A DNA stretch of 64,000 bases from a virus (Duplodnaviria; Caudoviricetes), in IMG/VR virus record IMGVR_UViG_3300038393_001585, positions 709 to 64,708 of that record; one strand, 5' to 3'. Positions 7,547 through 49,462 of the stretch are shown in pieces; positions within the stretch are counted from its first letter, which is position 1, and the number at the start of each line of letters is the position of its first letter. Both the position numbers and the translations under genes were made by a program. Under the pieces are notes generated by a model. The model worked only from the letters and a program-made list of their open reading frames with translations, did not search any database and had not been told where the DNA came from.

Positions 7547-7578
7547 GCCCTGCTGAAGGCCTGTTTCCAGGTGGATTT

Positions 7579-9244: not shown

Positions 9245-9268
9245 GCAGTACCCCCTGGTTGGTGCAAG

Positions 9269-26275: not shown

Positions 26276-26887
26276 GTGATGGACGCCTGCCTGATCTGCC
26301 GCCGCGACCTCCGCGACTACGAGACCGGCCGGTACTCGTGCCTCATCTGCCAAGACCGCGGGATAGCCATGCTCCGCGCAATGCCCGGCCTGTACGAGCA
26401 GCTCGGCGACCTCCTGCAGCCCGGCTCCGGACAGGGCGGAGGACGCGTCTCCGGCAGCAAGACGGCGCCCCTGCCCTGCTCCACCGAAATCCTCAACCTG
26501 CGCTCCCGCGGCGGCCTCGTCACCATCCTCGCCAGCTGGGAAGACGCCATCCGCGACGAACTCGGCTACACCGCCGCCACCTTCCGCGGCAACTACCAGC
26601 AGACCCTGGCCGGTGTCGTCGCGTTCCTCGCCGGCAACGCGCCCTGGATCTACGCCTCGTTCGCGGCCGTCGACGAGATGCACGAAGAATTGCGGCGCTA
26701 CCACGGGCAGGCCAGGGCGCTCGCCGAAGGGGAACGCGGGCCGCGGCAGTTCGGCGTCGTCTGCGCATGCGGAGCCGTCCTCAGCATCAGCCTGGAGACA
26801 CCCGGCAAGCAGTGCCGAAGCTGCGGGGAGCAGTACGGGCTGCAGGAACTCCGGCGGCTGCCGCTCGCTGCCCGATCTGCGGCATGA
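26276..26887 (+). CDS. Zn-ribbon protein, putative late regulator
   Basis: CxxC...CxxC N-terminus, APLPC...LASWE, C-terminal CAC...CRSCG; last early-operon gene. Confidence 0.6.
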   Translation: MMDACLICRRDLRDYETGRYSCLICQDRGIAMLRAMPGLYEQLGDLLQPGSGQGGGRVSGSKTAPLPCSTEILNLRSRGGLVTILASWEDAIRDELGYTAATFRGNYQQTLAGVVAFLAGNAPWIYASFAAVDEMHEELRRYHGQARALAEGERGPRQFGVVCACGAVLSISLETPGKQCRSCGEQYGLQELRRLPLAARSAA

Positions 26888-26915
26888 TGCCCACCCGCAA
26901 CCCGAGGGGGGACCA

Positions 26916-27326
26916 ATGGCAACGGAGCGGGAACGTGCAGCCTTCATCGGCTACCTCGTCTTCGCGATACCTCTCGTAGCCATCGGCTTCTGGATCGCCA
27001 ACACCGGGCCCACCACCGACCCGCCGGACTACACAACGCCCAGCGAGCCAGCCGTCACCTGGACGCCAGAGCCCCCGGTGAGCATTCCTGACAGTCCATC
27101 CTCTGCCCAGCAGGACTGCGGAGACGGCACCGATGGCACGTGGGCCGAATGCTGGCAGCGGGCGCACGACCGGGCCGTCGCACGGCTACGGACGGCCTGG
27201 CCCACCCCATCGACTCCGGTAACCGTGCCATCGCTCGCCCCGCCCGCCCTCACCGTCTGCGCAGACGGCAGTATCAGCCACTCCACAGGCAGCGGCACCT
27301 GCTCCTGGCACGGCGGCATCGGCTGA
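26916..27326 (+). CDS. Membrane-anchored DUF3761-like protein
   Basis: N-terminal TM, Pro/Thr linker, VCADGSISHSTGSGTCSWHGG. Confidence 0.65.
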   Translation: MATERERAAFIGYLVFAIPLVAIGFWIANTGPTTDPPDYTTPSEPAVTWTPEPPVSIPDSPSSAQQDCGDGTDGTWAECWQRAHDRAVARLRTAWPTPSTPVTVPSLAPPALTVCADGSISHSTGSGTCSWHGGIG

Positions 27327-27331
27327 ACGAC

Positions 27332-27364
27332 GAAGGCGCCCACCCAGCCCGGGTGGGCGCCTTC
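27332..27364. terminator. Bidirectional terminator
   Basis: 14-bp stem GAAGGCGCCCACCC / GGGTGGGCGCCTTC between convergent genes. Confidence 0.75.
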
Positions 27365-27376
27365 ACGCATGTCCGG

Positions 27377-27703
27377 CTACGGCACCCATCGGCCCGTGCA
27401 CGCCAGGCAGATCATCGATGTACTCCAAGCGCCGTGTGCCGCCTCCCACCGGGCCACCCGCTGCTGCATCACCGCACCCCACACCAGCCCGCCGGCCGCG
27501 GCGAGCAACCCGAGCAGGACGCTGCTCGTCGCCATCAACGCGATCCCGACCGCGATCACACCCAGCACCAGCACATACTGCGCCTCCACCGCTGCGGGTG
27601 GCGCGTACCGGCCCTTCAACGGCGAATCCGACGGCAGCGACTCCCAGTAGTGCGGAAGGTGCTCAACGTTCGACGAACCGCACTTCGCGCTCGGGCACTT
27701 CAC
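27377..27703 (-). CDS. Two-TM membrane protein with terminal Cys pairs
   Basis: CPSAKC N-terminus, two hydrophobic helices, CLAC C-terminus. Confidence 0.65.
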   Translation of the reverse strand: MKCPSAKCGSSNVEHLPHYWESLPSDSPLKGRYAPPAAVEAQYVLVLGVIAVGIALMATSSVLLGLLAAAGGLVWGAVMQQRVARWEAAHGAWSTSMICLACTGRWVP

Positions 27704-27825
27704 TACAACCCCCCACAGGTCAGACAGTTGAAGCCCGCAGCATCTGCGGAACGTCCGACTCCATCAAGGGCGCACACGGCGAAGCCCCGTCCGTGCACGA
27801 CGGACGGGGCGGGAGTGGCTGTTGA

Positions 27826-28131
27826 TCAGGCAGTGGGGCGCATCTCTGTCAGCTGGTACAGCTCCGGCAGCTCGGGCATCGGCACTCGCAGCGCCTGCCC
27901 GAGCATCGCGCGGGCCACGATCTCCCACTCCGCCTCCGGGCGGCCGGCCGGGCGAACGAACAGCAGGCTGCCGTCGCCGCGGACGTAGGCGCCGCCGGTG
28001 AAGCGGGGGCCAGCCTTCAGAACGCTGACGTCGATGGCGAACTCGGCGAGGAGCTGGGGGAGCGGGGTATCGAGCAGGTGATCTGTCGACAAAGCGGTCG
28101 GCGTTAAACGGGCAGGGGCTGCTACCGTCAT
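27826..28131 (-). CDS. Hypothetical protein (ImmA-like, no HEXXH) with TTA codon
   Basis: FTGGAYV...LLFV..AGRP..E.EIVARAMLG; codon 9 is TTA (28107-28105). Confidence 0.55.
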   Translation of the reverse strand: MTVAAPARLTPTALSTDHLLDTPLPQLLAEFAIDVSVLKAGPRFTGGAYVRGDGSLLFVRPAGRPEAEWEIVARAMLGQALRVPMPELPELYQLTEMRPTA

Positions 28132-28230
28132 GGAGAACTCCATCCTTCGCAGGGTTGGGTTGTTGATCGGCGAGTCGCCACTCGCCGGTCGAACTGGCCG
28201 GGCGGTCGCCACCGCTCGGCCGTTCGCGTT

Positions 28231-28641
28231 TCAGTGCGGCAGTACCTCGTCGAGGTACTCCTGCACCGGTTCGAACAGGCCGTAGGGCACCAGCTTCGGG
28301 ATCTCGTCGTGGGCGACCCAGGCGACCAGGTCGAGTTCGTCGGCGTCCGCGACGCGTGCCTCTCCCGAGATCACCTCGCAGGCCGTGTAAGCCATGAACT
28401 TCTTCGTCTTCGGGTGCACGCGGTCGCCGATGTACCTGACCGCCTTCACGACGAGGCCGGTCTCCTCGAGCGTCTCCCGCACGGCTGCCTGCTCCGCCGT
28501 CTCTCCCTCTTCGACACCTCCAGCCGGGAACTGCCAGCTGAGTTCGCCCTCCTTCACGCGGCGGCGAACCATCAAGACACGGCCGCCGTCGGTGATGATC
28601 GCGGCGCTGACGTCGGGCGTGGTCGTCGTCTCGGTGGTCAT
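28231..28641 (-). CDS. Nudix hydrolase (Pif-like)
   Basis: Perfect Nudix box G-GVEEG-E-TAEQAAV-RETLEETGL. Confidence 0.9.
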   Translation of the reverse strand: MTTETTTTPDVSAAIITDGGRVLMVRRRVKEGELSWQFPAGGVEEGETAEQAAVRETLEETGLVVKAVRYIGDRVHPKTKKFMAYTACEVISGEARVADADELDLVAWVAHDEIPKLVPYGLFEPVQEYLDEVLPH

Positions 28642-29273
28642 ACCGTTGCCTCCAGGGCATTGAGGATCGGCGGATAGATGCGGTCGGTGGGGATGTACCG
28701 GTCGAGCTCGCTTATCGGAGCCCAGGCCACGGCGACGTTCTCGGAGGAATCCCCGTTGACCGCCTCGCCGTGCACGTAATCGCAGATGAAGTAATCGCAC
28801 ATTGCGCGCGTCCTGGGATGGAGCCGTTCACCCAAATGCTCGCGGACCATGCAGTGAACCCCGGTCTCGTCCAGGGTCTCCCGTACCGCGACCTTCGACG
28901 CCAGACCGCCCGGCTTCACGATGCCGGCTGGGAACTGCCAGGCGATATCGTCGCCGTCCTGCCTGCACACGAGCAGCACGTCACCGCCGCGGCGGACCAC
29001 GGCAATCGCCACGCGCAAGGCCTGGACCTCCGGCTGCGGCGCCGCTGTCCGCGACAAATGGATGAACCGCCGGCGCACCGCATCACCTGCCCTTTCAAAG
29101 GCTGTTTCCAGGATCCGCTGCGTTTCCGGCTGGGGGATCATTGCGGGGTTCGCGCGCCATGCTGCGACGCTGCGAACCGAGACCCCGAGCTTTGCCGCGA
29201 ACGCTTCCTGGGTCATCTCGAATGCGTCCTGGAGCCAGGCGGCTTTCTGCCCGGTCCACTGTTGTCCGTCCAC
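28638..29273 (-). CDS. XRE-HTH plus degenerate Nudix fusion regulator
   Basis: MTQEAFAAKLGVSVRSVAAW HTH; WQFPAGIVKPGG...RETLDETG altered Nudix box. Confidence 0.85.
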   Translation of the reverse strand: MDGQQWTGQKAAWLQDAFEMTQEAFAAKLGVSVRSVAAWRANPAMIPQPETQRILETAFERAGDAVRRRFIHLSRTAAPQPEVQALRVAIAVVRRGGDVLLVCRQDGDDIAWQFPAGIVKPGGLASKVAVRETLDETGVHCMVREHLGERLHPRTRAMCDYFICDYVHGEAVNGDSSENVAVAWAPISELDRYIPTDRIYPPILNALEATV

Positions 29274-29316
29274 TATCGGCTCCTCGGCCGCCTTTGTGGG
29301 CCCTGCTGTAGCGGGT

Positions 29317-29363
29317 CTGCATGGTGCTGCACATCCCGCTGCAGATCACTGCATGGTGCTGCA
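29317..29363. promoter_or_regulatory. Direct-repeat operator upstream of HTH-Nudix
   Basis: CTGCATGGTGCTGCA at 29317 and 29349; TGCA at 29318, 29328, 29340, 29350, 29360. Confidence 0.55.
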
Positions 29364-29425
29364 TGAGATGTTCATGGTCTGGGCGCGCTCGCGCGCGAAG
29401 ACTCGGATGCATGCTGAAGCCACTG

Positions 29426-29671
29426 CTATCTGCCTCGCGCGATGGCCTCTGCGCGAGAGCCGCTGAAGCCGAGCATGCGGCCGACCTCAGCCCAGGTGCG
29501 TCCCTCGTACAGCGACCAGACCACGTCCCGCTGGATGTCCAGCAGGGCGCGGTCTGCGTCGGCGAGTTCGGTGCGCAGATCGCGCGCCTTCTGGAAGCGC
29601 TCGACCGGGTCGGCGATGGCCGTCACGGCGACGGTGGCGGTCTCAAGGGCATCGGTGAGCGTATCGGTCAT
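29426..29671 (-). CDS. Small C-terminal HTH protein
   Basis: GRTWAEVGRMLGFSGSRAEAIA; divergent from transfer operon. Confidence 0.7.
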   Translation of the reverse strand: MTDTLTDALETATVAVTAIADPVERFQKARDLRTELADADRALLDIQRDVVWSLYEGRTWAEVGRMLGFSGSRAEAIARGR

Positions 29672-29758
29672 GCGGCCAGAGTAGGGACCGATTCCACCCG
29701 CTTCAACCCCGTGTTGATGATCGGGTCTGATGGGTTTCAGTCTTCTGGGCGAAGGGAG

Positions 29759-29798
29759 TTGACAGCCCGTCGGGCACTCTTCAATATGGGTGTTGAAG
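29759..29798 (+). promoter_or_regulatory. Putative promoter of transfer operon
   Basis: TTGACA-17 nt-CAATAT, overlapped by inverted repeat CTTCAA-N8-TTGAAG. Confidence 0.45.
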
Positions 29799-29924
29799 CC
29801 GACGGCGCTCCACCGCCCGAAGCCTCAGCAGCCGCTCCACCGGCCGCACAAATGAAGACGGGCCGGACTCTGCGACTCCACTCGCAGGCCGGCCCTGACC
29901 ACCAGGTTCTGTAGAGGAGACCCT

Positions 29925-30209
29925 GTGGCTACCACGATCGTACAGTCGCCCCCGTGCGACGCTGACCAGGGCATGACCCTGGCCGACCGCCTCGCCCACG
30001 AGGCCGGCAGCTACGTCCGCGTCAGCCCGGATGTGCAGCGCGCCCTCACCCGCTACGGCATCTGCCTGGCCCGGGTCGCCGACCTGACCATGCGGGACCG
30101 GCTGACGGCCGCCGAGTTCGACGGCCTCGCCGACGCGCAGAAGGAGCTCGACCGGCTGCACGAGCAGCTGGAGCAGGCCGGGCAGCTCCACCTGGTGGTG
30201 GCGTCGTGA
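29925..30209 (+). CDS. Hypothetical protein (transfer operon)
   Basis: GAGGAG RBS. Confidence 0.6.
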   Translation: MATTIVQSPPCDADQGMTLADRLAHEAGSYVRVSPDVQRALTRYGICLARVADLTMRDRLTAAEFDGLADAQKELDRLHEQLEQAGQLHLVVAS

Positions 30210-30367
30210 GCCGCCGCATCCTCGCCGAGTTCCCGGCCGGTGGGCCGCGCGGCTCCTGGCCGGCGGAAGAGAAGGCAGCAGAGCTGACCGCACAGGGCCA
30301 GCCCGCCACCGTCCGCCAGGACATCACCCGCGACGTGTTCATAGTGGTTCCGGAGCGTGAGTCGTGA
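30206..30367 (+). CDS. Small hypothetical protein
   Basis: GTGA overlap; MSRRILAEFPAGGPRGSWPAEE... Confidence 0.5.
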   Translation: MSRRILAEFPAGGPRGSWPAEEKAAELTAQGQPATVRQDITRDVFIVVPERES

Positions 30368-30555
30368 CCGCCGACCTGGAGCGTCTCACCGCCGCGCAGA
30401 CGAAGGCCTACGAACTGGTCGCCGCGATCGCTGAGGCCCCGGAGCCGGGTCGGCACCTGCGGGTGGCGATCACGGACCCCGAGACCGAGCAGCGGCTCGC
30501 GACCTGCTTCGTCAACTACGAGACCGCCCGATCCCTGCGGCTGGTTACGTCGTGA
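30364..30555 (+). CDS. Small hypothetical protein
   Basis: GTGA overlap. Confidence 0.55.
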   Translation: MTADLERLTAAQTKAYELVAAIAEAPEPGRHLRVAITDPETEQRLATCFVNYETARSLRLVTS

Positions 30556-30737
30556 CCGCCGAAGAGCACGCGGAGCTGTCCCGGAAGCTCGCCGAACTCA
30601 ACCGGCAGAGCTCCAACCGGCCCAAGTAGGGCCCCACCGACCGCCGCGCTGACGGCATCCATCCATCCCCCGCCACCACCGTCAGCGCGGCCTCCCACCC
30701 CATCCCAGCCCCACCTGACCAGTGAGGAAGACCAGCC

Positions 30738-30974
30738 ATGCCCCCGTTCCTGTTCGACGGCGACCTCGCCGTCACCAAGCTCGGTTCCCGCCGCCGCGCT
30801 TCGATCACCGTGGCCGCTGCGACCGACGACTACGCCGCCCAGCTGATCTCCGAGTACCTGACCGCCATGAAGGCCGGCCGCCACGAGGAGATGCTGCTGA
30901 TCCGCGACCAGGCCTCCGCGATCCACGGCCTCGTCGACGAGCTCGACGGCTTCGACTACCCCGCCGCCGCCTGA
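30738..30974 (+). CDS. Small hypothetical protein
   Basis: GAGGA RBS. Confidence 0.55.
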   Translation: MPPFLFDGDLAVTKLGSRRRASITVAAATDDYAAQLISEYLTAMKAGRHEEMLLIRDQASAIHGLVDELDGFDYPAAA

Positions 30975-31011
30975 CCCACTCACCCACTCCCATCTCCGAG
31001 AGGACATTCCG

Positions 31012-31233
31012 ATGCTGAAGACCATCCGCCGCCGCCACCGTCTGGGGCTCGCCGCCGCGAACCGCGAGTGGATGAACGAGCGCCTGGACAACGTCGCCAG
31101 GCTCGTCGAGCAGATCCGCGAGCTCCCGGCGGGCGTGTCGGCGAAGGAACTGGCCGGCCAGCTGCTCACCGAGGCCGAAGAGGTGGCCGTCCGCGCGACC
31201 TACGTCGACGAACTGACCGCGAAGGCCGCCTGA
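31012..31233 (+). CDS. Small hypothetical protein
   Basis: GAGAGGA RBS. Confidence 0.55.
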   Translation: MLKTIRRRHRLGLAAANREWMNERLDNVARLVEQIRELPAGVSAKELAGQLLTEAEEVAVRATYVDELTAKAA

Positions 31234-31240
31234 CCCACCG

Positions 31241-31289
31241 GCCCCGGACCAGCCGCGAGGTGCCGGATCGAATCCGGCCCGGGGCGCCA
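31241..31289 (+). ncRNA. tRNA-like minihelix (acceptor stem, T-arm and CCA; no D or anticodon arm)
   Basis: GCCCCGG / CCGGGGC 7-bp stem, GCCGG-ATCGAAT-CCGGC T-arm, G discriminator, CCA. Confidence 0.6.
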
Positions 31290-31329
31290 ACCGCCACCCA
31301 CCATCCGTCCCGACCCCAGTGAGGTCGTC

Positions 31330-31521
31330 ATGCCCCGTTTCATCCTCTGGGCGCTCCTCGCCCTCTACCTGCTCGTTGTCGGCCTGTTCCCGGCCGCAGC
31401 CGCTCCGGTCGTTCTGGCCGCCGCGGGTGCCGGGATCGTCCTGGCGAAGCTCCCGCTGCTCGCCGTGGCCGGCGCCGTTGCCCTGTACCTCCGCCGTCCC
31501 GCCCGACCCGCTACCGCCTGA
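31330..31521 (+). CDS. Small Spd-like membrane protein
   Basis: 63 aa, almost entirely hydrophobic, upstream of traB-like gene. Confidence 0.6.
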   Translation: MPRFILWALLALYLLVVGLFPAAAAPVVLAAAGAGIVLAKLPLLAVAGAVALYLRRPARPATA

Positions 31522-31536
31522 AGGGACTGATCACCC

Positions 31537-32823
31537 GTGACCGCCATGCCCATCGAGAAGGTCAACGGCCACACCGTTGCCTCCCATGCTGAGCCGCGTA
31601 TCGATCCGCGTGCCGCAGCCGAGGTGGAGGCGATCCGGGCTCGCACCGCCGCCGAGACCAAGGCTCTCCTGACCGAAGCCGAGGGGAACAAGGCCCTGGC
31701 GCTCGAGCAGGCGAACCAGCTGCGACTGGAGAACGAGAAGCAGCAGCTCGCCAACGAGCGGGCCGCGCTCCGGTTCGAGCGCGAGAAGGCTGAGCAGCTC
31801 GCCAAGATCGCTGAGGCGAACACGAAGCAGGAAGCCGCGGAGCGCGCCGCTCGTGCCGCCCGCGAAGCCGACGACGCCCAGCGCGCCGAAGAGCAGAAGC
31901 AGGCCGCCGAGGTCGCCCAGGCGGACGACCGGTGGCGCCGGTACGCGCTCACCTTCTACGTGGTGTGCGCGATCGTGGCCCTGCCAGTGCAGGTTGCCGC
32001 GTTTTGGAGCCCGCGCGCCCCGTGGTTGATCGCCGCCCCGCTGATGCTCGAAGGCGGCGCCTGGGTCGTCCTCAAGGGCGCCGCCGCGGCGGTCGCCAAC
32101 CATCGGCCGCACTGGCACTACAGGCTCATCGCCTGGCTGCTCGCCGCGATCGCCGCCTGCATCAACCTGTGGCACGGCCTCAACGCGTTCGACCCGGCGA
32201 CCGCCATCGGCACCGCATTCGCCTCCATCGCCGGACCTGGCGTGTGGGACCTCCACGAGCACGGCCGCATCCGGAAGCGGGACGGCGTCCTCACCCGCAA
32301 GGAGCGCCGCGCGCAGCGGAAGGCCGAACAGGCTGAGGCCGCGCGGAAGGCCGCTGAGGAGAAGCGGCGTGCCGCCGAGAAGGAGGCCGCCGACAAGGCC
32401 GCGGCGGAGGCGCGGAAGCAGCTGGACGAGGCGCGGGCGAAGGCCTTCCCGAAGGTGTGGGAGCACGCCCTGAAGATCGCTGCCGCGCTCGGCGAGACGA
32501 CCGTCACTGAGTCCGTGTGGAAGCGCGCGCACCGCGACGTCGAGGGCGCCGACCCGTCCGAGTCCGCGGAGATTATCCGACTGCGCAACGCCGCCGAAGC
32601 GAGGGTCGAAGCGGCCCGCCAACAGCGCCCCGTCAGCACCGTCAGCAAGACCACGAACGCGCAGCGTGCATCGCAAGTGCCCGGGTCGAAGAAGCCCCGC
32701 GTCTACAACCCGCCCGCGCGCCGCGGCACCCGCACCAAGGGCGATGTGAAGTACACGCCCGCAGCCCGTCGCCAGGCCTCCATCACCGCCCGCCAGACCG
32801 CCGCCCAGAAGGACCAGACGTGA
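31537..32823 (+). CDS. SpdB2/DUF2637-like coiled-coil plus multi-TM transfer protein
   Basis: Long coiled coil, four hydrophobic segments, second coiled coil, basic tail; coupled to FtsK gene. Confidence 0.65.
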   Translation: MTAMPIEKVNGHTVASHAEPRIDPRAAAEVEAIRARTAAETKALLTEAEGNKALALEQANQLRLENEKQQLANERAALRFEREKAEQLAKIAEANTKQEAAERAARAAREADDAQRAEEQKQAAEVAQADDRWRRYALTFYVVCAIVALPVQVAAFWSPRAPWLIAAPLMLEGGAWVVLKGAAAAVANHRPHWHYRLIAWLLAAIAACINLWHGLNAFDPATAIGTAFASIAGPGVWDLHEHGRIRKRDGVLTRKERRAQRKAEQAEAARKAAEEKRRAAEKEAADKAAAEARKQLDEARAKAFPKVWEHALKIAAALGETTVTESVWKRAHRDVEGADPSESAEIIRLRNAAEARVEAARQQRPVSTVSKTTNAQRASQVPGSKKPRVYNPPARRGTRTKGDVKYTPAARRQASITARQTAAQKDQT

Positions 32824-34952
32824 GCATCGAGACGACCCCCAGCAGCAGCAACGACCCCGAGTGGGAGCGGCTCGTCGCCGGCTACCTCAACGAGCCGGTC
32901 AAGGAGCCCGCCATGCAGTCCGCCGGCGGCTCCGTCGTGAAGCCGTCGCTGCCCGCCGACCCGATGGGCGACACCCCGCTCACCCCCGCCTGGACGAAGA
33001 CCCGCGCCGGCTGGAAGAGCCGCACCCAGCTCGGCCGCGTCAACACCGTCCGCGGCTTCCGCAAGTGGCTGCGCCGTCAGACCACCCGGCACGGGCAGCC
33101 CGCGCAGATCTACCGAGGCACCGCCCGCGTCATCGTCTGGGTCCGCGGCGTCGAAGGCGTCGAAGTCGCCAAGGCCAAGCACGAAGCGCGCCGCGCCCAC
33201 CAGGAATACCGGCAGGCGCAGTGGGCCAACGGCAAGCGGCTCATGCCCGGCAGCGCCAAGGACAAGCTGTCCAAGGAGATGGATAAGGCCGCCGACGAGT
33301 CCGAGCGGGCCATGAGCAAGTACCGCAAGGCCCGCAAGGACGCCCGCACCCTGCAGTCCCTGCGCGCCGCCGCGGCCCTCACCCCGCTCGCCGCCGTCGA
33401 AGGCGCCGGCCTGTACCTGGGCGGTGGCCCCGGTGGCATCCTTGCCGCCGGCCTCACCCTCACCGGGCTCGCCCTCATCGGTCGCCGCACCAGCACGGGC
33501 GAACTGTGGTCGGACCGCGACGCGAAGATCGGCGACGGCGACCGGATGACCGAGACCATGCTGAACCGGGTCTACCAGGACGCCAAGGTCATCGGATCCG
33601 ACGACGTGCTGAAGCTGGTCACCCCGTGCACGCTCACCGCCGACGGGCAGGCCTGGCAGGTCGTGTTCGCTCTGCCGTCTGGGATCCCCGCGAAGAAGGC
33701 GCTCGGTGCACGTGACGGCCTCGCCAACGGCTTCGGTGTGTCCGCACAGCAGATCCACCAGACCCGAGGCGACCGCGAAGACCGCATACACCTCCGCGTC
33801 TCCCTGAAGCTGCCGTTCTCCGCCAAGCCCGGCAAGGGACCCCTCCTCGAAGCCGAGCGGGTCAACCTGTGGCAGCCCATCCCCATGGGCATCAACCTGC
33901 GCGGCGAGCCGGTATCCACGTCGTGGGTGGAGCGGTCCGGCCTGTTCGGCGGTGAGCCGGGAGCCGGGAAGTCCGCCGCGGCCAACGGTCTGCTCCTCGC
34001 CGCCGCCCTCGACCCGACCGTCCGCATGTACCTCGCCGACGGCAAGGCCGGCGCGGACATCACCCCGTTCGAGCCGATCGCCACCATGTACGACACCGAC
34101 GGCGATCCGGCCCGGCTCCTCGAAATCCTCGAGCACATCTGGGACGTGGAGATCAAGGAGCGTCGGGCGCTCGCCAAGGAGCACGGCTCCCGGAAGTTGA
34201 CCGAGGCCATGGCCGCCGCGGACCCGCGGGTTTGCCAGGCCGTCCTGCTGGTCGACGAGTGGTCGTCCTACGGTGCCGCCGCCGACCAGAAGACCCGGCA
34301 GGAGATGGAGCGGCTGCTCCGGCTGATCGTGCAGCAGGGCCGTGCGCTCGGCATCATCACACTGGCCGCCACCCAGAAGCCAGACAGCGACTCCGTGCCG
34401 ACCGGCATCCGCGACATCCTGTCCATCCGCTGGGCGATGCGCTGCCTCACCCCGCAGGCCTCCGACACGATCCTCGGCCAGGGGTACGCCTCCGCTGGGC
34501 ACAACGCGCAGGACATCCTGAAGTCGCAGCGCGGGGTGGGCATCTACATGGACGGTGAGGGCGCCGAGCCCGAGCTGGCCCGCGGCCACTACTACGACGA
34601 CGACGAGGTAGAGGCGATCCTGCGTCGGGCCTACGCGCTGCGGCAGGAAGCCGGCACGCTGCCCGTCGTCGCCGAGCCAGAGGTGACGATCCTCGACCAC
34701 CTCATCAAGGCTGCGTCCGCGACCGGCCGGGGCAACGTGACCCGCGCGGAGGTCTTCGCCTACCTCGCTGGCGTCGATGAGGAGTTCGTCCAGGCCGACG
34801 ACGAGAGCGACGCGCGCTACGCCTCCCGGGCCGGGACCGCCCTGAAGGACCGGCTCGCCGAACTCGAGGTCGACGTGCCGGCGGTGCAGTTCCCGCACGA
34901 CGGCAAGCGCGTGTGGGGCTGGACCCTGGACGCGCTCCAGAACGCCCGGTAA
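32820..34952 (+). CDS. traB: TraB-like FtsK/SpoIIIE DNA translocase
   Basis: Central TM pair, Walker A GEPGAGKS, Walker B LLVDEW, GRALGI..LAATQKP, C-terminal wHTH-like domain. Confidence 0.85.
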   Translation: MSIETTPSSSNDPEWERLVAGYLNEPVKEPAMQSAGGSVVKPSLPADPMGDTPLTPAWTKTRAGWKSRTQLGRVNTVRGFRKWLRRQTTRHGQPAQIYRGTARVIVWVRGVEGVEVAKAKHEARRAHQEYRQAQWANGKRLMPGSAKDKLSKEMDKAADESERAMSKYRKARKDARTLQSLRAAAALTPLAAVEGAGLYLGGGPGGILAAGLTLTGLALIGRRTSTGELWSDRDAKIGDGDRMTETMLNRVYQDAKVIGSDDVLKLVTPCTLTADGQAWQVVFALPSGIPAKKALGARDGLANGFGVSAQQIHQTRGDREDRIHLRVSLKLPFSAKPGKGPLLEAERVNLWQPIPMGINLRGEPVSTSWVERSGLFGGEPGAGKSAAANGLLLAAALDPTVRMYLADGKAGADITPFEPIATMYDTDGDPARLLEILEHIWDVEIKERRALAKEHGSRKLTEAMAAADPRVCQAVLLVDEWSSYGAAADQKTRQEMERLLRLIVQQGRALGIITLAATQKPDSDSVPTGIRDILSIRWAMRCLTPQASDTILGQGYASAGHNAQDILKSQRGVGIYMDGEGAEPELARGHYYDDDEVEAILRRAYALRQEAGTLPVVAEPEVTILDHLIKAASATGRGNVTRAEVFAYLAGVDEEFVQADDESDARYASRAGTALKDRLAELEVDVPAVQFPHDGKRVWGWTLDALQNAR

Positions 34953-35007
34953 ATCCCATTCGCCCCTATGTGTCTGCACCGTTATGACCGTGTATGGCCA
35001 TATGTGA

Positions 35008-35123
35008 CCCCTGTGCGGAGTCGCCTCCACCCTGTGCACGCCGCACAGGGCGACAGGCCCTCGCACAGGGGCCCGCACACCCCCCGACCTGCAACTTCAC
35101 CGCCCCGCACAGCCCGCGCACAC
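35008..35123. repeat. clt-like locus (TraB recognition repeats)
   Basis: GCACAGGG exact x4 (inverted 35009 and 35030; direct 35043 and 35063) plus CGCACA variants, directly after traB. Confidence 0.6.
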
Positions 35124-35143
35124 CCCACCGACCGGAGATCCCG

Positions 35144-35608
35144 ATGACCACCGAGACCAACCCCACCCATGCCGCCATGACCGACCAGGAGGCCGCCGCC
35201 AAAGCCCGGCGGATCATCGCGGACTTCGCCACCAGCTACCGTGACGACTCGCTGCCCAGCGTCCCCACCATCGGCGACGCCCCACCCGTGCTCCAGCCCG
35301 ACAAGCGGATCGTGCCCGCGTGGGCCGCCGGGATCGCAGTCGCCTCCATCGGCGTCGGAGCCGGCACCACCGGCATCGGCTGCGCCGCCTGGCTCATCCT
35401 CAAAGGCCTCGCCGCCGTCACCCTCGACAGCGTCCTCATGGTCACCCTGCCGATCGCCGCACTGGCCATGCTCGTCACCGCCATCGGCGCCGCCATCAAC
35501 CGGGCCCGGCCCACGGTCACCACCAACGTCTACAAGGGGACCGTCCACCAGAAGAACATCCACAGCCGGACAACCGGCGTGTGGGCCAAGACCTCCAACC
35601 GGCCGTGA
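35144..35608 (+). CDS. Spd-like two-TM membrane protein
   Basis: TSYRDD...PPV.QP then two TM helices; GGAG RBS. Confidence 0.6.
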   Translation: MTTETNPTHAAMTDQEAAAKARRIIADFATSYRDDSLPSVPTIGDAPPVLQPDKRIVPAWAAGIAVASIGVGAGTTGIGCAAWLILKGLAAVTLDSVLMVTLPIAALAMLVTAIGAAINRARPTVTTNVYKGTVHQKNIHSRTTGVWAKTSNRP

Positions 35609-35735
35609 AGCCGGGACGCAAGAACGCGCGTTCGGGTTGCCTGGACCACCAAATCTTTTCCATGAACCATGCAACCATCCATCACTCGCACAAGTCCTTC
35701 ACATGTAATCCACAGACATCCCTTTGGGGGGGATC

Positions 35736-36389
35736 TTGAACCAGAACCCGCAGCAGCCTCCGCAGCCCGGCTGGAACGGCCCGCAGCAGCCCGGACAGCC
35801 GCAGCCCGGATGGGGCATGCCGCCGCAGCCGCCGAAGCGCAAGGCCGGAAAGATCGTCGGCCTCGGATGCCTCGGCGTCGTCGCCTTGTTCATCATCATC
35901 GGCATCATCGGTGCCGCCACCGGAAGCGGCTCCAGCAACAACGCCAGCAAGGGCACCGCCGCGACCCACAGCACCACGCCCAACCCCGGTAAGGCGAAGG
36001 ACACGACGCCCACGGCCAGCAGCAAGCCGAAGACCACGGACAAGCCCAAGCCCGCGGCCAAGCCCGCACCCAAGCCGAAGCCGAAGCCGAAGGTCGTCAC
36101 CTTCAAGGTGTGGGGCACCGCCCCGGCCGGCGCGCTCGGCGGCCTGGACATCACCTACGGCTCCGACAGCGACAACCGCCAGGGCCACTTCTCCAACGGC
36201 AAGTTCGAGGCCACCCTGCCTCTGAACGACAAGGCCATGTACTACACGGTGACCGCCCAGCTGCAGGGCTCGGGCGACATCCACTGTTCCGTCACTGTCG
36301 ACGGCCAGACCAAGCAGGGTCACGCGTCCGGCGGGTACAACATCTGCGATGCCCAGCTGTCCGGCGGCCTCTTCGGCGGCTGGGACTAG
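35736..36389 (+). CDS. Membrane-anchored surface protein (Pro/Lys linker, MmpS-like C-domain)
   Basis: Gln/Pro N-terminus, TM, PKPK linker, VTAQLQGSGDIHCSVTVDG...C. Confidence 0.7.
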   Translation: MNQNPQQPPQPGWNGPQQPGQPQPGWGMPPQPPKRKAGKIVGLGCLGVVALFIIIGIIGAATGSGSSNNASKGTAATHSTTPNPGKAKDTTPTASSKPKTTDKPKPAAKPAPKPKPKPKVVTFKVWGTAPAGALGGLDITYGSDSDNRQGHFSNGKFEATLPLNDKAMYYTVTAQLQGSGDIHCSVTVDGQTKQGHASGGYNICDAQLSGGLFGGWD

Positions 36390-36403
36390 ACCCCCCAAGG
36401 GAA

Positions 36404-36438
36404 GAGGCCCGGTCGTACCCCCAGTGCGGCCGGGCCTC
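36404..36438. terminator. Hairpin terminator
   Basis: GAGGCCCGGTCGT / GCGGCCGGGCCTC then CTTT. Confidence 0.6.
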
Positions 36439-36572
36439 CTTTGGGTGTAGGGCTTGCTTGACCTGCCGATCACCGGTATGTCACAGTGGCCCCGTCCGGA
36501 TACCCGTGTGTCCGCAGTTACTTGAGCCCCCAGCTTCCGGCCGGGGGCTTTCTGCATGTTCGGGGGGTGCCC

Positions 36573-36815
36573 ATGGACGTGACCGAGCTGTACCCCGACG
36601 ACCTCGTCTACGAGCATGAAGCGACCGAAGCAACCGGCGTCCCCGGCACCGTGATCCGGCAGTGGGCGCGGCGAGGGAAGATCCACCGCTTCCAGGGCAA
36701 CGGCCAACTCACCGGCCAAGGCCACGAGTACAAGACGATGTACGCCCTGCCCGAGATACAGCAGCGCGCGGCCACCTACCGGCCCATGCCGCAACGCGCC
36801 CGCCGCGCCGCCTGA
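36573..36815 (+). CDS. MerR-like HTH DNA-binding protein
   Basis: EATEATGVPGTVIRQWARRGKI...MYALPEI. Confidence 0.7.
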   Translation: MDVTELYPDDLVYEHEATEATGVPGTVIRQWARRGKIHRFQGNGQLTGQGHEYKTMYALPEIQQRAATYRPMPQRARRAA

Positions 36816-36878
36816 GCGTCCCGCCGTCCGTCGTGCCCCCGCCACGGGCGGCGGGACTCGCAACTCTGGGAGGCGGCG

Positions 36879-37961
36879 ATGGCGTTCCCGGCAGGTACTC
36901 CCGTTGTCACCCTTACCGGCACGCTGCCGTCCGCGGTCGCCGGCACCGGCTACGGCGGGCAGGTAGTCGCCACCCCGTCCGCTGTGCTCACCGACGAGAC
37001 CCGGCACGCCGTCTACCCCGGCGGCGGGAAAGCCGACATCGTCGACGGCACCTTCACGGTGCAGCTGATCCCGAACGATGCGGCCGGGATCCTGCCGACC
37101 GGATGGAAGTGGTACATCGACGTCCAGCCGTCCCGCGCCCGGCGGATCGCGTTCTGGTGCGACATCCACGGCGCCGACGGATCCACGATCCACCTCGACG
37201 ACCTCGTACCTGCGCAGGCGCCCGGCGGCGGCACCGCTGGCACACCAGGCGAGAGCGCCTACGAAGTTGCTGTCGAGCAGGGGTTCACCGGCACGGTCAC
37301 CCAGTGGCTGGCCTCGCTCGTCGGCCCCGCAGGTCCGCAAGGTCCCGCCGGGCCGACGGGCACTCAGGGCCCCAAGGGCGATACCGGCGCGCAAGGCCCT
37401 GCCGGCCCGGCTGGTGCCGACGGTGCGCAAGGTCCACAAGGCCCGGCCGGTGCGACAGGACCCCAGGGTCCTCAGGGTAATCCCGGACCTCCGGGTCCCG
37501 GCTCCCCGATCAAGACGGTCACAGCACGCATCACCGACGACAACCTGTCCGGCCTGCCCTCCGCGGCCAGTTGGACGGTTGTGCAGACGTCCGCGGGGAC
37601 GCCGTTGCAGTGCTCGATCGCCGCCGTTGCCGGGGACCGGATCAAGCTGTACGGGGCGTTCATGTACCAGGGCGCCCACTATCTCGACTGGGCGCTCCTG
37701 GCTTCTGACGGATCGATCGCCCTGTACGCGGCTTCGGGGACGAGCAGCCCGCTCAGCGAGGGCAACCCCACGATGTATCCGTCCACGAGCTTCTCGCGGA
37801 TGTCGACGGGCGACATGGTCACCGTCGGAGCTGGTCACATCAACAACGGCATGATCACGATCGCGCTCGCCCACCAAGGCACCGCGGCTGGCACCGTCTA
37901 CGCCCACCCCGTCTACCCGTGGCGTCTACGCCTGGAAAACGTCGGCCCTGAGCCGTCCTGA
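36879..37961 (+). CDS. Collagen-repeat virion fibre protein
   Basis: N-terminal beta domain, GESAYEVAV...WLASLVG, Gly-X-Y run, C-terminal beta domain. Confidence 0.8.
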
Positions 37962-37972
37962 GAGGAGGCCCC

Positions 37973-38356
37973 GTGGCCGACAACTTGACGAACACGGCGG
38001 AGAACCGGGCGCTGGACTGGATAAACGGGCTGACGTCGACGGCTCCGACGACACCCCTGAAGGTGGCGCTCGTGACCGCGAACGGTGACGACGCGACCGC
38101 GGGCACGGAGGTGACGGGCGGCGGCTACGCGCGGCAGACCCTGACCGTTGCCGCAGCCGTCAGCGGGGCGACCAGCAACTCGGCGGACCTTGTGTTCACG
38201 AACATGCCGGCGTGCACGGTCGTCGGTGTGGAGATCTGGGACAGTGCCGGCGCCCCGGTGCGGCTCTGGTACGGCGCGCTGAGCGCCAGCCGGGCCGTGA
38301 ACGCTGGCGACGACTTCAAGCTGGTGGCCGGAGCGCTCTCGCTGTCGCTGAGCTGA
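37973..38356 (+). CDS. Virion fibre/adapter protein
   Basis: EVTGGGYARQT...NSADLVF...VVGVEIWD...L.YGAL...VNAGD. Confidence 0.7.
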   Translation: MADNLTNTAENRALDWINGLTSTAPTTPLKVALVTANGDDATAGTEVTGGGYARQTLTVAAAVSGATSNSADLVFTNMPACTVVGVEIWDSAGAPVRLWYGALSASRAVNAGDDFKLVAGALSLSLS

Positions 38357-38366
38357 GGAGGCGCCC

Positions 38367-39473
38367 GTGCCGATCCTCTCCACGCTGGTCGACAACTTCA
38401 ACGACGGGACGATCGGACCCGACTGGGGCAACAGCTACGGCGGCGCCTACGAGTCCGGCGGCTTCGCCCACGTGCCATGCACGACGGGTTTCGCCGGATT
38501 GCAGACCGCCTACAGCTGGACGTTCGCCGGGGCCAGCCTCTTCGTGAAGATCGTGTCCGTGCCAGCGGCGTCGACGGCGACGGAGGCTTACTGCGGCGTC
38601 CTCGTCAACTCGGGCACGGACGGCACCCGCATCGGGTTCACGATCAAGCTCGGTGCGACGCTGCGCATGCAGAACGACGTCGGCTACTTCGACGCGAGCG
38701 CTGTCGAGATCCCCTACGACCCCGTGGCCCACGCTTTCCTGCGGCTCCGTGAGGACGGCACGAACGTCTACTGGGACACGTCGCCCGACGGGACCACGTG
38801 GACCAACCGCAGGACGCTCGCCAGCCCGGCGTGGATCGCCACCGCGATCGACCAGTGCGCGCTCGACATGAGCGCCCACCGCGACGCCGGCACCAACGAC
38901 GAGGCCACCTACGACCTGTTCAACACGCTCAGCAACGGCGCCGTCGTCACCGGAATCGCGGCTCTCGCAGCTGGCAGCAGCCTCACCGCGACCGCCACAG
39001 CCACCGTCCAGGCGACCGCCGCACTCACAGCCGACAGCAGCATCAACACCACCCCTGCGGTCGCCGTGCACGCGGCGGCAGCCTTGACCGCAGGCTCGAC
39101 ATTGATGGCAGACGCGTTCAGCGAGGGCATCCCGGAGGTGGCTGGCTTGGCTGCGGGAGACCTCGACCTCACGATCGAGCAGGGCTCGACGTTCGTGCAG
39201 ACGTACACCGTGACCGACGCCGGCTTCACGTGGGACGGTTGGACGGCCCGCGCGCAGATCCGGTCTGCGCCTGCCGACAGCGGCGAGCTGCTCCTCGACC
39301 TCGCCCCCTACCTGACGGTCATCGGTGCTGCGGTGCGGCTGGCGATCCCCGCCAGCGTGACGCAGACCCTCACCCGCAACGGCGTGTGGGATCTTGAGAT
39401 GGTCAGCGGCACCACGGTGGTGCGGATCCTGCAGGGCAAGGTCACCATGTCGCTGGAGGTGACCAGGACGTGA
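38367..39473 (+). CDS. Virion protein (lectin-like N-domain plus adapter-like C-domain)
   Basis: LVDNFND...FLRLRE...YWDTSPDG; DLTIEQGSTF...WDLEM...RILQGKVT. Confidence 0.65.
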   Translation: MPILSTLVDNFNDGTIGPDWGNSYGGAYESGGFAHVPCTTGFAGLQTAYSWTFAGASLFVKIVSVPAASTATEAYCGVLVNSGTDGTRIGFTIKLGATLRMQNDVGYFDASAVEIPYDPVAHAFLRLREDGTNVYWDTSPDGTTWTNRRTLASPAWIATAIDQCALDMSAHRDAGTNDEATYDLFNTLSNGAVVTGIAALAAGSSLTATATATVQATAALTADSSINTTPAVAVHAAAALTAGSTLMADAFSEGIPEVAGLAAGDLDLTIEQGSTFVQTYTVTDAGFTWDGWTARAQIRSAPADSGELLLDLAPYLTVIGAAVRLAIPASVTQTLTRNGVWDLEMVSGTTVVRILQGKVTMSLEVTRT

Positions 39474-41239
39474 AAATCCAGGTCACTGGCGAGACCGATC
39501 CCAGCGCGATCGATGTCGAGGGCGGGGAGCCCGCCACCGTCGTCGAGGTCACCTCCGGGTTCGTGTCCTCCGTCAACGGAAAGACGGGAGGCGTCATCCT
39601 CGGCGCGGCTGATGTCGGCGCCGACTCGACCGGTGCGGCAGCCGCGGCCCAGACAGCGGCGATCAGCGCCGCAGCCGACGATGCGACGGCGAAGGTGGCC
39701 GCACACGTTGCGGCCGTCGACCCGCATGGCGACCGCGCCTATACGGACAGCCGGATCACCGTCGACTGGGTCAACGTCAAGAAGACCTACGGCGCCAAAG
39801 GCGACGGCACGACAGACGACACGGCAGCCATCCAGGCCGCCATCGACTCGGGCTCGCCGGTGTACTTCCCGCCCGGCGTCTACCTGACGGGCACGCTCGA
39901 AGCCCGCCTCGGCATGGTCCTCATCGGCGCCATGCGCTCCGCCTACGCCTACCCTGTGCCGTCCACCCGCTCAGCCACGCTCAAGCTGAAGAGCGGCACG
40001 AACGGCAACCTGATCCACGCCGCCGACGGCATCAACAACGTCCAGATCAGCAGCCTCGCCTTCGACGGGAACAAGGCAGGCAACAGCAGCGGCGACATCA
40101 TCCACCTGGATACCGCCAGCGCCCAGGACACGTCGTGGCACATCAGCGACTGCTACTTCGACAACGCCCCCGCCAACGGTGTCTTCATCGGCTCCGGCCG
40201 CCAAGCAGTCAAGATCCACCGCACGTGGATCATGCGAGCCGCGAACGCCGGGATCATCGTCAACGGGCCCGACTGCGGCTTCAACACCGTCCTGATCGGC
40301 CTCTCCGGCGCCTACGGCATGTACATCGGCAACGGCGCCAACGTCCAGCACATCACCGACTGCGACATCTGGTCATCCACCCAGCACGGTATCGTCGTCG
40401 ACAACGCCTCCATGGTGGCCATCACCGGCACCGGCATCGACCGGCACCAGCAGTCCGGCATCGTCGTCCTCAATGGCGACGTCACCATCCGCGGCTGCAT
40501 GCTCCACGGCAACAGCCAGGCCGCCAACTCGACCTACCCGCACATCCGGGTCGACGCCGGCAACGTCATCGTGTCCGGCTGCATCTTCGGCGGCACCACG
40601 TTCGTCAACAATCCGAACTACGCGATCAGCACCACCAACGGGAAGATCCGCGAAAGCAGCAACTCGTCCACCGCCCAGTCGTACACGACCGGGTTCATCA
40701 ACAACCTTGCCGCTCTCATCCCCGACGACCGGCAATGGCAGCCCACCGACATGGGGCTCCTCGCCTGGACCCACGACCCGCTCGCAGCAGCCGGCACCAT
40801 CGCCAGCACCAGCGGCAGCGTGTACTTCATGAAGATCCCCATCCGGCGCATGACCACGGTGACCAACATCGTCCTCACCGTCACCACGGCCGGATCCGGG
40901 CTCACCGCCGGGCAGAACCTGGTCGGCCTGTACGACTCGGCCGGCAACCGGCTCGCCGTCAGCGCCGACCAGTCCACCGCATTCACCACCACCGGCACCA
41001 AGACGATCCCGCTGACCACACCGCTGCTCGTCCAGCCCGGCTACTACTACATCGCGGTCATGTCCAACGGGACCACGCCCGCCGCGCTCATGTACACGGT
41101 GGTGCAGTCCGCCGCCGCCCTCAACCTGAACAGCTCGCTGCGGTTCCTCAACATCACCGGGCAGACCAGCCTCCCGGCAACGTTCACGCCCGGGACAGCA
41201 AGCACCGGCACTAACGCCCGCTGGGCAGCCATCAGCTAA
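39470..41239 (+). CDS. Tailspike / depolymerase (pectate-lyase-3-like beta-helix)
   Basis: NVKKTYGAKGDGTTDDTAAIQAAID...VYFPPGVY followed by beta-helix repeats. Confidence 0.85.
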   Translation: MKIQVTGETDPSAIDVEGGEPATVVEVTSGFVSSVNGKTGGVILGAADVGADSTGAAAAAQTAAISAAADDATAKVAAHVAAVDPHGDRAYTDSRITVDWVNVKKTYGAKGDGTTDDTAAIQAAIDSGSPVYFPPGVYLTGTLEARLGMVLIGAMRSAYAYPVPSTRSATLKLKSGTNGNLIHAADGINNVQISSLAFDGNKAGNSSGDIIHLDTASAQDTSWHISDCYFDNAPANGVFIGSGRQAVKIHRTWIMRAANAGIIVNGPDCGFNTVLIGLSGAYGMYIGNGANVQHITDCDIWSSTQHGIVVDNASMVAITGTGIDRHQQSGIVVLNGDVTIRGCMLHGNSQAANSTYPHIRVDAGNVIVSGCIFGGTTFVNNPNYAISTTNGKIRESSNSSTAQSYTTGFINNLAALIPDDRQWQPTDMGLLAWTHDPLAAAGTIASTSGSVYFMKIPIRRMTTVTNIVLTVTTAGSGLTAGQNLVGLYDSAGNRLAVSADQSTAFTTTGTKTIPLTTPLLVQPGYYYIAVMSNGTTPAALMYTVVQSAAALNLNSSLRFLNITGQTSLPATFTPGTASTGTNARWAAIS

Positions 41240-48505: not shown

Positions 48506-49462
48506 ATGGTTGCAACCAACCCCATCAAGCTGAGCGACGTCGACCCGACGTTTCTCCCGCCCACTCTGACGGCCCCGATCTTCGAGAAGTCCGTCGAGCA
48601 GAGCGCCGTCATGAGCCTCGCCCGGCGGGTGCCGCTGTCCATGTCGGCGAACACCGCAGTGCCCGTCCCGCTGGACGTGCCGACGGCAGACTGGGTGGAC
48701 CAGGCCGGCCGTAAGCCGCTGTCCACCGGTGGCGTCGACATCAAGCAGATGTCCGGCAAGAAGATCGCCGTCATGATCCCGGTCGCGATGGAGGTCGTCG
48801 AGTCCAACGCGGCGGGCCTGTGGACCCAGCTGCAGAACGACCTGCCGACCGCGTTCTCCCGCGCCTTCGACCGGGCGACGATCCACGGCCGCACCATGAA
48901 GGGCGCCACCGGCCCGTTCCCGGACTACCTGGCCATGACGACCAAGGAGGTCGTCCTCGGCACGACCGGCCAGTCCACGGGCGGCATCTGGACCGACCTG
49001 GTCAACGGCATGGAAGCCATCATCGACGACGACTGGGACTACACCGGGACCGTCGCCGACAACCGGCTCAAGCCGAAGCTGCTGAAGGCCACCGACACCA
49101 CCGGTCAGCCCATCTTCGTCGACACCACCCAGCCGGGAACCGGTGCGGCGCTGGCGGGCACCCTGGTCGGCGAGCCGGTCGCCTACTCCCGCAGCGTCTC
49201 CGGCAAGGTGCGCCGCCAGTCCACCTCGGTCGACTCGGGTCTGCGCGCGATTGGCGGGGACTTCTCCCAGGCTGCCTACGGCGTGGGTATGGACATCTCC
49301 GTCAAGATCAGCCGTGAGGCGACGTACATCGACGAGGACGGCGGCGTGCACTCGGCGTTCCAGGAGAACCTGGTGCTCCTGCTCGCGGAGGCGTACTACG
49401 GCTTCGTCCTCGGCGACCCGGAGGCGTTCGTGCGGTACGTGGCGACCGCCGGGGCCTCGTGA
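48506..49462 (+). CDS. Major capsid protein (HK97 fold)
   Basis: ADWVDQAGRKP...KKIAV.IPV..EV...D.A.I.G...FQENLV. Confidence 0.9.
   Translation: MVATNPIKLSDVDPTFLPPTLTAPIFEKSVEQSAVMSLARRVPLSMSANTAVPVPLDVPTADWVDQAGRKPLSTGGVDIKQMSGKKIAVMIPVAMEVVESNAAGLWTQLQNDLPTAFSRAFDRATIHGRTMKGATGPFPDYLAMTTKEVVLGTTGQSTGGIWTDLVNGMEAIIDDDWDYTGTVADNRLKPKLLKATDTTGQPIFVDTTQPGTGAALAGTLVGEPVAYSRSVSGKVRRQSTSVDSGLRAIGGDFSQAAYGVGMDISVKISREATYIDEDGGVHSAFQENLVLLLAEAYYGFVLGDPEAFVRYVATAGAS

Follow-up and report, generated by a model that had tools for sequence, protein, structure and literature searches.

A predicted transfer and spread module of pSVH1 type in a complete siphovirus genome

We analysed a 64,000-nucleotide stretch of viral DNA (hereafter the window), which corresponds to bases 709-64708 of the IMG/VR virus record IMGVR_UViG_3300038393_001585 (64,708 bp in total), a soil-metagenome virus contig that lacks host flanks at both ends, with a G+C content of ~69% and 0 tRNA genes. 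Genes were called by third-position GC (GC3), and positions 27377-36400 of the window hold a transfer and spread module of pSVH1 type (hereafter the cassette), with the early genes of a complete siphovirus genome on one side and its late genes on the other (Table 1). The window order is holin copy (519-881), right arm, integrase, early genes, cassette, fibre-like block, methyltransferase, and virion and lysis genes; integrase, the genes from terminase to tail tip, endolysin and holin, i.e., the set looked for in a complete temperate tailed phage, are all present as open frames. A first-pass annotation of this DNA had described the cassette as a TraB-like FtsK translocase with intact Walker A/B motifs, coupled to a coiled-coil protein with several transmembrane (TM) helices and to small membrane genes, followed by clt-like repeats and faced by a divergent Nudix/regulator block, with no separate Rep or Int, inside a phage with complete head, tail and lysis genes. 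All these elements were recovered here, the divergent block comprising two minus-strand Nudix genes (one with a helix-turn-helix, HTH), and no Int or Rep family match was obtained inside the cassette with Pfam, PHROGs and NCBIfam scans.

The predicted TraB translocase matched the Pfam family FtsK_SpoIIIE (PF01580, E 3.6e-8) and phrog_1358 (E 2e-103), and displayed 44% identity over 598 aa to the TraB of pSVH1 (E 2e-128), in an alignment spanning the N-terminal and motor regions, and 41-44% identity to the TraBs of pSG5, pFP11 and other Streptomyces plasmids. On the NCBIfam plasmid_TraB model NF041214 it scored 23.5 bits, below the equivalog cut-off of 800. The Walker A (GGEPGAGKS) and Walker B (LLVDEW, with VDEW) motifs are invariant across 55 TraB homologues, and the AlphaFold model gave its best matches to the TcpA coupling protein and to the FtsK motor with dsDNA (E 1e-12 to 1e-13). 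The last ~90 residues were modelled as a separate domain (pLDDT 88.9, H-E-H-H-E-E topology) for which the top PDB matches were all winged-helix DNA-binding domains (probability up to 1.0), and we are confident in predicting that the C-terminus folds as a winged helix, which would be the part that reads the repeats. In addition, a Gly/Ala-rich hydrophobic stretch lies at residues ~186-222, in a region of low pLDDT.

In the clade of this TraB, the phage copies are 57-87% identical to one another and at most 44% identical to any plasmid copy; no sequenced plasmid was found with a TraB more than 44% identical to that of the window. Searches against sequenced phages gave no match for the cassette (megablast), and tblastn with TraB against 50,697 phage records (INPHARED) returned one weak, irrelevant match and no similar TraB in any record, so that this collection offered no isolated phage for reference. 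Among 301 sampled Streptomyces genomes, at least 2 carried the protein at E <= 1e-150, one of them being S. azureus, the search centre, and this fraction is a rough lower bound as the genus-wide search scored 3 candidates per genome; a single-protein peptide-pattern scan of genome contigs yielded 3 loci, its patterns being too exact. Note that one homologue, the 1063-aa P0061 of Streptomyces sp. NPDC001268, carries the annotation LAGLIDADG homing endonuclease (PF14528) and may be a TraB interrupted by an intein.

The gene that overlaps the start of traB encodes a SpdB2 homologue (BLASTP against the SpdB2 of pSVH1: 30% identity over 315 aa, E 5e-15), with a shared MLEGGAW / NxWHGL / WDL-HG core. 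Two TM helices of this protein exceeded the hydropathy threshold, versus four predicted for SpdB2 (PMC4447253). It is 71-74% identical in the related genomes G001, G005 and MS06, and together with TraB it makes up the conserved core of the cassette.

Directly behind traB, at the location that clt occupies in plasmids of pSVH1 type, the repeat cluster starts with two minus-strand and two plus-strand copies of GCACAGGG, in this order, after which come CCGCACAC, CCGCACAG and GCGCACAC. Six of the 25 CGCACAS words of the window fall inside 35011-35123 (113 bp; ~0.044 expected, Poisson p ~1e-11), and 4/8 of the GCACAGGG words inside 35009-35070. The repeat word of the pJV1 clt was published as CCGCACA[C/G][C/G] (PMC3583192), and it is this word that the CGCACAS cluster uses. 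Across 13 related loci, three C-terminal types of TraB each pair with a different repeat word: TraBs ending in GKRVWGWTL (window and G001) go with GCACAGGG, those ending in GGRSMGYRL (MS06, KN37 and cg35) with CCTGGACA in 3-7 copies, and the pSVH1-like ones ending in GSKVSVYPL (seven loci, clear in six) with CCCCGTCC in 4-6 copies, S. bobili of the latter type having the shorter core CCGTCCG alone (3 copies). The residue differences between the first two types are located in the putative recognition helix and wing. A pattern of this kind would be expected for TraB-clt pairs (Vogelmann 2011, as summarised in PMC3583192 and PMC4447253). We consider the array to be a putative clt, cognate to the TraB of the window, and the covariation between TraB type and repeat word is the evidence that most strongly suggests a functional cassette.

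Table 1. Features of the cassette and of the surrounding phage genome (window positions)
Feature	Position	Strand	Remarks
TraB, FtsK/SpoIIIE-type dsDNA translocase, 710 aa	32820-34952	+	N-terminal helical region, motor, predicted C-terminal winged helix (~624-709)
SpdB2 homologue, 428 aa	31537-32823	+	N- and C-terminal coiled coils flank a multi-TM core; overlaps the traB start by 4 bases
clt-like repeat cluster (putative clt)	35005-35125	.	intergenic, directly downstream of traB
108-aa protein	27377-27703	-	Cys-rich N-terminus, one TM helix (44-62); GC3 0.87; leftmost divergent gene; no Pfam/PHROGs match
128-aa protein	27826-28212	-	40-43% identity in G005/S. azureus and G002; no family match
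Nudix hydrolase gene	28231-28800	-	Pfam NUDIX E 6.8e-24; 73% identical homologue beside the MS06 cassette; true start probably near 28660
HTH-Nudix fusion, 211 aa	28638-29273	-	Pfam NUDIX E 7e-15 and HTH_3 E 1.2e-3; 52% identical homologue in MS06
81-aa protein	29426-29671	-	GC3 0.85; weak homologue in G002; no family match; last minus-strand gene, faces intergenic 29672-29924
Six small open reading frames	29925-30209, 30206-30367, 30364-30555, 30738-30974, 31012-31233, 31330-31521	+	GC3 0.83-0.95
154-aa membrane protein	35144-35608	+	three TM helices; phrog_19266 E 2e-13; partly conserved in G005, G001, MS06
221-aa membrane-anchored protein	35724-36389	+	Pro/Gln-rich N-terminus, one TM helix, Lys/Pro linker, beta-rich C-domain
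GC-rich inverted repeat I6	36404-36438	+	15-nt arms, 87% complementary; closes the cassette; late-gene train starts at 36567
XerC/D-like tyrosine recombinase (second recombinase)	2751-3779		right arm
DUF6233 protein	4397-4738		right arm; DUF6233 also on plasmid pNBC_01005 and in G001
Short GntR-type HTH protein, 85 aa	5929-6186		right arm
Phage tyrosine integrase	7841-9244	-	Pfam Phage_integrase E 6.8e-15; sole integrase adjoining the repressor/early region
Virion and lysis module	43499-63911	+	TerS, TerL, portal, protease, capsid, GT4 glycosyltransferase, tail tube, tape measure, tail proteins, GH25 endolysin, holin

The cassette is shared by a family of phages. Five IMG/VR relatives (62-85 kb, CheckV 96-100%) displayed 76-86% identity to the window for TraB, 73-89% for the portal and 72-82% for the capsid. 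With the order read genome by genome (G001, G005, G002, S. azureus and others), the cassette was found at a like location in at least 10 related phage genomes: early and late genes flank it in the S. azureus prophage, G001 and G005, and in G002 it follows the early genes close to the end of the contig, at whose start the late genes are found. TraB of the window clade also adjoins phage genes in MS06, S. bobili, Streptomyces sp. KN37, S. thermocarboxydovorans and genome G068, and the cassette stands upstream of the late genes in at least 3 different virion lineages, the virion modules of MS06 (portal 38% identical) and S. bobili (PF03354/PF04860-type TerL and portal) being of other types. At the locus of Streptomyces sp. 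cg35, no virion genes were found within 10 kb, and the genome showed no PF05065 capsid.

The relative in S. azureus ATCC 14921 is a 67-kb prophage with TraB inside and an integrase at one end, bounded by perfect 91-bp direct repeats (G008 C38, 62686-62776 and 129818-129908) that form the sole attachment (att) pair. Since ARAGORN detected no tRNA in the 100-kb stretch around it (contig 50001-150000), the att target is probably a protein-coding gene. Around the cassette of the window, no direct repeats longer than 14 bp and no att-like flanks were found, and its tetranucleotide correlation with other phage segments is 0.97-0.98, versus 0.96-0.99 among those segments, i.e., without a compositional break. 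A self-contained insert of ~10-25 kb of the kind of an actinomycete integrative and conjugative element (AICE), with its own Int, Rep and att, is ruled out by the lack of int, rep, att and compositional break. The cassette is thus part of the phage genome, as first proposed, and excision of the cassette alone as an AICE, which the first-pass annotation had listed among the outcomes that would contradict it, finds no own Int, Rep or att to work with. Relaxed selection on TraB, listed there as well, is not what we observed: the medians of pairwise NG86 dN/dS were 0.38 for traB and for spdB2, close to 0.31 for portal and for capsid and 0.35 for tail, values that are comparable between genes only and not absolute, as NG86 dS is compressed at this GC3 bias. 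Purifying selection on TraB therefore appears comparable to that on the virion genes.

The cassette behaves as a mosaic module, because its side relative to the homologue of window gene 26276-26887 changes from relative to relative and because it is absent from the plasmid pNBC_01005. The latter (L002/L003, NZ_CP108705.1, Streptomyces sp. NBC_01005, 88 kb) is a circular ParAB plasmid with a type III polyketide synthase (PKS) gene, and its virion and lysis module is 45-83% identical at the amino acid level to that of the window phage. By its ParAB, its type III PKS gene and its phage particle genes, it appears to be a plasmid-phage like pZL12/pSLE1. Proteins of 717, 649 and 398 aa at the cassette position of pNBC_01005 were considered as counterparts and rejected, as they have no Pfam match and no similarity to TraB or SpdB2. 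A further sequence, NZ_CP109578.1 (92 kb), has a portal 68% identical to that of the window.

The record itself allows the molecular state of this phage to be read. The final 453 bases of the window are bases 518-970 again (94% identity, 63,030 bp apart); the holin region is thus present in two copies (window 1-970 and 63548-64000), and the record exceeds one genome unit. Contigs from four soil/rhizosphere metagenomes were mapped to window 1-9500, these being short unitigs that are unable to span the holin repeat directly. In the four metagenomes, the first ~520 bases of the window are a minor variant (depth 4-8), and the right-end holin variant and the right arm have roughly equal, higher depth within each run (~25-190 by run); moreover, a contig joining at 518 carries exactly window 63518-63547 on its upstream side. 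In the dominant molecule, the order is therefore endolysin, holin, right arm, attP, int, and its 63-kb unit forms a circle, a concatemer or a tandem; the record resembles a circular or concatemeric genome in which the assembly strayed into a related strain. Homologues of window genes 5149, 5453 and 6756 are placed past the lysis genes at the far end of the S. azureus prophage, and this layout identifies the first 7.8 kb of the window as the right arm of the phage, connected to the integrase arm through an intact attP. The attP is expected within 6993-7840, and the adjacent integrase is 65% identical to the one abutting the S. azureus 91-bp att repeat and the attP-like site of G001. G001 has the same permutation, with one attP-like copy (93% over 103 bp) beside its mid-contig integrase. 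By its sequence, the window record is the attP-intact, circularly permuted form of a temperate phage, with integration not seen in this copy, and the first-pass description of an integrated prophage has to be corrected accordingly. In one run (X2), a contig matches from ~7800 on, just outside the integrase stop, with unrelated sequence before, and this could be the attL junction of an integrated copy of the phage in that sample.

Altogether, we propose, with a probability of about 0.45, that the cassette is a native, working transfer module of pSVH1/pJV1 type which moves the DNA of a temperate Streptomyces siphovirus between hyphae without virions. The substrate would be the phage genome as a free dsDNA circle, either excised or replicating. 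TraB hexamers would dock through the C-terminal winged helix on the GCACAGGG/CCGCACA repeats at 35005-35125 and pump unprocessed dsDNA through the hyphal envelope into the neighbouring mycelium, SpdB2 and the small membrane proteins would carry the DNA past septal cross-walls, and the phage integrase would fix it in the recipient chromosome. The phage would thereby gain a capsid-, receptor- and lysis-independent route besides its virions, and the Nudix genes may act like Pif of pSAM2, blocking transfer between cells that carry the element. Such virion-independent transfer is plausible because TraB, SpdB2 and the clt word match studied plasmids and because the plasmid-phage pZL12 provides a precedent; we infer it from a sequence that would look the same for intermycelial transfer and for intramycelial spread. 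With somewhat greater reserve, we extend the proposal to a whole lineage of integrative temperate Streptomyces siphoviruses of soil and rhizosphere, which might use two routes, virions and TraB/clt conjugation of the excised circle, with specificity types diversifying within the phage population.

Several points weigh against this proposal. For the window phage family it is drawn from sequences and models, and the compression of dS mentioned above restricts what the selection values can say. The structural matches of the TraB C-terminus to winged helices are weak by E-value (0.02-0.2), and no N-terminal TM helix of TraB was found, no segment exceeding the hydropathy threshold. The cassette of the window has no GntR repressor of the TraR/KorA kind, though relatives have one, and such a repressor is the usual brake on the toxic traB. 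The Nudix block is absent from most relatives and thus not conserved across them. Finally, phage excision is normally tied to the lytic programme, and the donor could die before transfer.

Another, rather unlikely, account is that the module pumps phage DNA past the cross-walls inside one infected or lysogenic mycelium, where it would reach many compartments, so that the whole colony and its spores become lysogenised or the burst is enlarged. The conserved SpdB2-TraB core and the requirement of TraB for spreading too are compatible with it, and the idea was raised by Thoma et al. 2015 for phage SpdB2 homologues. However, TraB and clt suffice for intermycelial transfer in every studied Streptomyces plasmid (PMC3583192, PMC4447253), and a complete TraB-clt pair seems excess for mere spreading when phages of the phiC31 type manage with SpdB2 alone; the lack of TraB homologues among the sequenced phage records points the same way.

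That the cassette serves some other role is an improbable option. It could exclude plasmids, AICEs or phages, mobilise the host chromosome from the prophage, or bring an extrachromosomal copy into spores, and each of these has some footing: the Pif-type Nudix genes of pSAM2 serve conjugal immunity (PMC2440964), clt-like sites allow TraB systems to mobilise chromosomal markers (PMC3218068), and the attP-intact form of the phage was found in the window record and in G001. Against this option, matched repeats sit on the phage itself, behind traB, and covary with the TraB DNA-binding domain, and because of this the phage's own DNA is the expected substrate; in addition, no ParA/ParB or plasmid Rep was found among ~47 window ORFs (open reading frames) scanned against Pfam, some small ORFs being outside the scan. 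Most improbable of all is that the phage picked up the cassette as a fragment of a plasmid or AICE, now decaying or selfish and of no use to it, since the shared virion module of cassette-free pNBC_01005 (with the 26276-26887 homologue ~0.7 kb from the methyltransferase gene), the changing side of the cassette relative to that homologue and the variable regulator and Nudix content of relatives are outweighed by intact cassette ORFs with invariant ATPase motifs, a traB dN/dS as low as that of virion genes, the co-diversification of the TraB-repeat pair into three types within phage genomes, the separation of the phage TraB clade from plasmid copies, and the homogeneous, att-free surroundings.

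The remaining cassette genes are less conserved than this core. In the divergent block, the 27826-28212 protein seems weakly conserved beside the cassette in relatives, the Nudix gene at 28231-28800 is Pif-like by position only, and the HTH-Nudix fusion is a candidate regulator or immunity factor. The six small ORFs are located where pSVH1 has its small spd genes, ahead of spdB2; 30738-30974 is 41-58% conserved in five relatives, and 31330-31521, one of three genes of the cassette counted as small membrane genes with 35144-35608 and 35724-36389, has a predicted TM helix. The 154-aa protein may be called Spd-like by its position, and it was ruled out as a homologue of Spd198 of pSVH1, there being no similarity between the two. 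For the 221-aa protein, the final gene of the cassette, no homologue was detected in the relatives, where the gene is variable. A scan of 26800-37000 for sigma-70 promoters and intrinsic terminators found nothing exceeding shuffles; the inverted repeat I6 has no T tract, so the terminator scan makes no call there.

Beyond the cassette, leftward repressor-side genes stand next to the integrase, and the rightward early genes include an RNase_T-like exonuclease, PDDEXK, AAA_24, two HTH proteins and a Zn-finger protein. The GT4 glycosyltransferase gene (49459-50469) directly follows the major capsid gene, is 65-75% identical in all relatives and on pNBC_01005, and its product may glycosylate the virion. 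A tail-fibre-like block (36879-41239) lies upstream of the terminase, separate from the tail genes after the tape measure, with a collagen-repeat protein (36879-37961), a Gp80-like protein, an LtfC-like beta-sandwich protein and a pectate-lyase beta-helix protein of 589 aa that may be a depolymerase. Relatives keep this block, with a variable C-terminal part of the beta-helix protein.

If the proposed transfer takes place, the spread and host range of these phages would not be limited to receptors, adsorption and lysis, and hosts that lack the receptor or resist the phage could be reached. A lysogen could then hand its prophage from hypha to hypha like an AICE, bypassing defences against virion entry, and lysogeny would spread without lysis. 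Reviews of AICEs argue for a mixed phage and plasmid ancestry of these elements. The boundary between AICEs, plasmids and phages in actinomycetes would be blurred, and the single case of pZL12 would extend to integrative phages. In addition, the three TraB/clt specificity types would offer a natural system for the co-evolution of a DNA pump and its docking site.

Among known systems, the tra-spd region of pSVH1 (TraR / SpdB3-Spd79-SpdB2-Orf108-TraB-clt-Spd198) shares with the cassette the order of divergent regulator, small genes, spdB2, traB, repeats and small membrane genes, as well as homologous TraB and SpdB2 and a C-terminal DNA-recognition domain predicted as a winged helix. pSVH1 is a 12.6-kb rolling-circle plasmid of Streptomyces venezuelae, whereas the cassette sits in a 63-kb tailed-phage genome and its copy in the window lacks Rep and the GntR-type TraR; the C-terminal domain and the repeat word differ, and the downstream Spd proteins are unrelated. 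With the clt of pJV1, the window shares the 9-bp word itself, present behind traB in four exact and two one-mismatch copies (35010-35124), but the array has fewer copies and a partly inverted orientation. As in AICEs such as pSAM2 (int-xis-rep-tra-spd-pif-korSA), maintenance by an integrase, TraB-type dsDNA transfer and Nudix genes beside the transfer genes occur together. Pif, the Nudix protein of pSAM2, acts in conjugal immunity (PMC2440964), and the likeness of the two Nudix domains adjoining the transfer genes of the window is one of position and domain, not of sequence comparison. Unlike pSAM2, the window phage is a complete virus and ~six times larger, no RepSA, RepAM or Prim-Pol was found in it, its cassette has no KorSA-type GntR, and its integrase lies on the phage arm 18 kb away.

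The closest precedent for two routes in one replicon is the plasmid-phage pZL12/phiZL12, for which a mapped conjugal transfer locus, virions and a full lytic cycle were described (Zhong et al. 2010, J Bacteriol 192:3747, as cited in PMC3583192 and PMC4487206). The window phage likewise joins a predicted transfer locus with virion and lysis genes; pZL12 is maintained as a ParAB plasmid, whereas the window phage has a tyrosine integrase, its relatives are integrated, and no plasmid maintenance genes were found among the ~47 ORFs scanned. As pNBC_01005 has no detectable homologue of the window TraB, the transfer modules of the window phage and of pZL12 may differ in origin. The first-pass annotation knew of no characterised element with this dual lifestyle, a view that pZL12 and the role proposed by Thoma et al. 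2015 for phage SpdB2 do not allow to stand. The parts of the cassette are ordinary members of the TraB, SpdB2 and clt families, and the dual-route idea is not new; in the searchable literature, we found no description of integrase-bearing tailed phages that conserve a complete TraB-clt-SpdB2 module. The actinophages phiC31 and VWB carry SpdB2 homologues that were proposed to help spread phage DNA (Thoma et al. 2015). Like them, the window phage is a temperate phage, here with Streptomyces relatives, that encodes a plasmid spreading protein, but whereas they are described as carrying SpdB2 homologues only, the window phage adds a full TraB motor and matched repeats.

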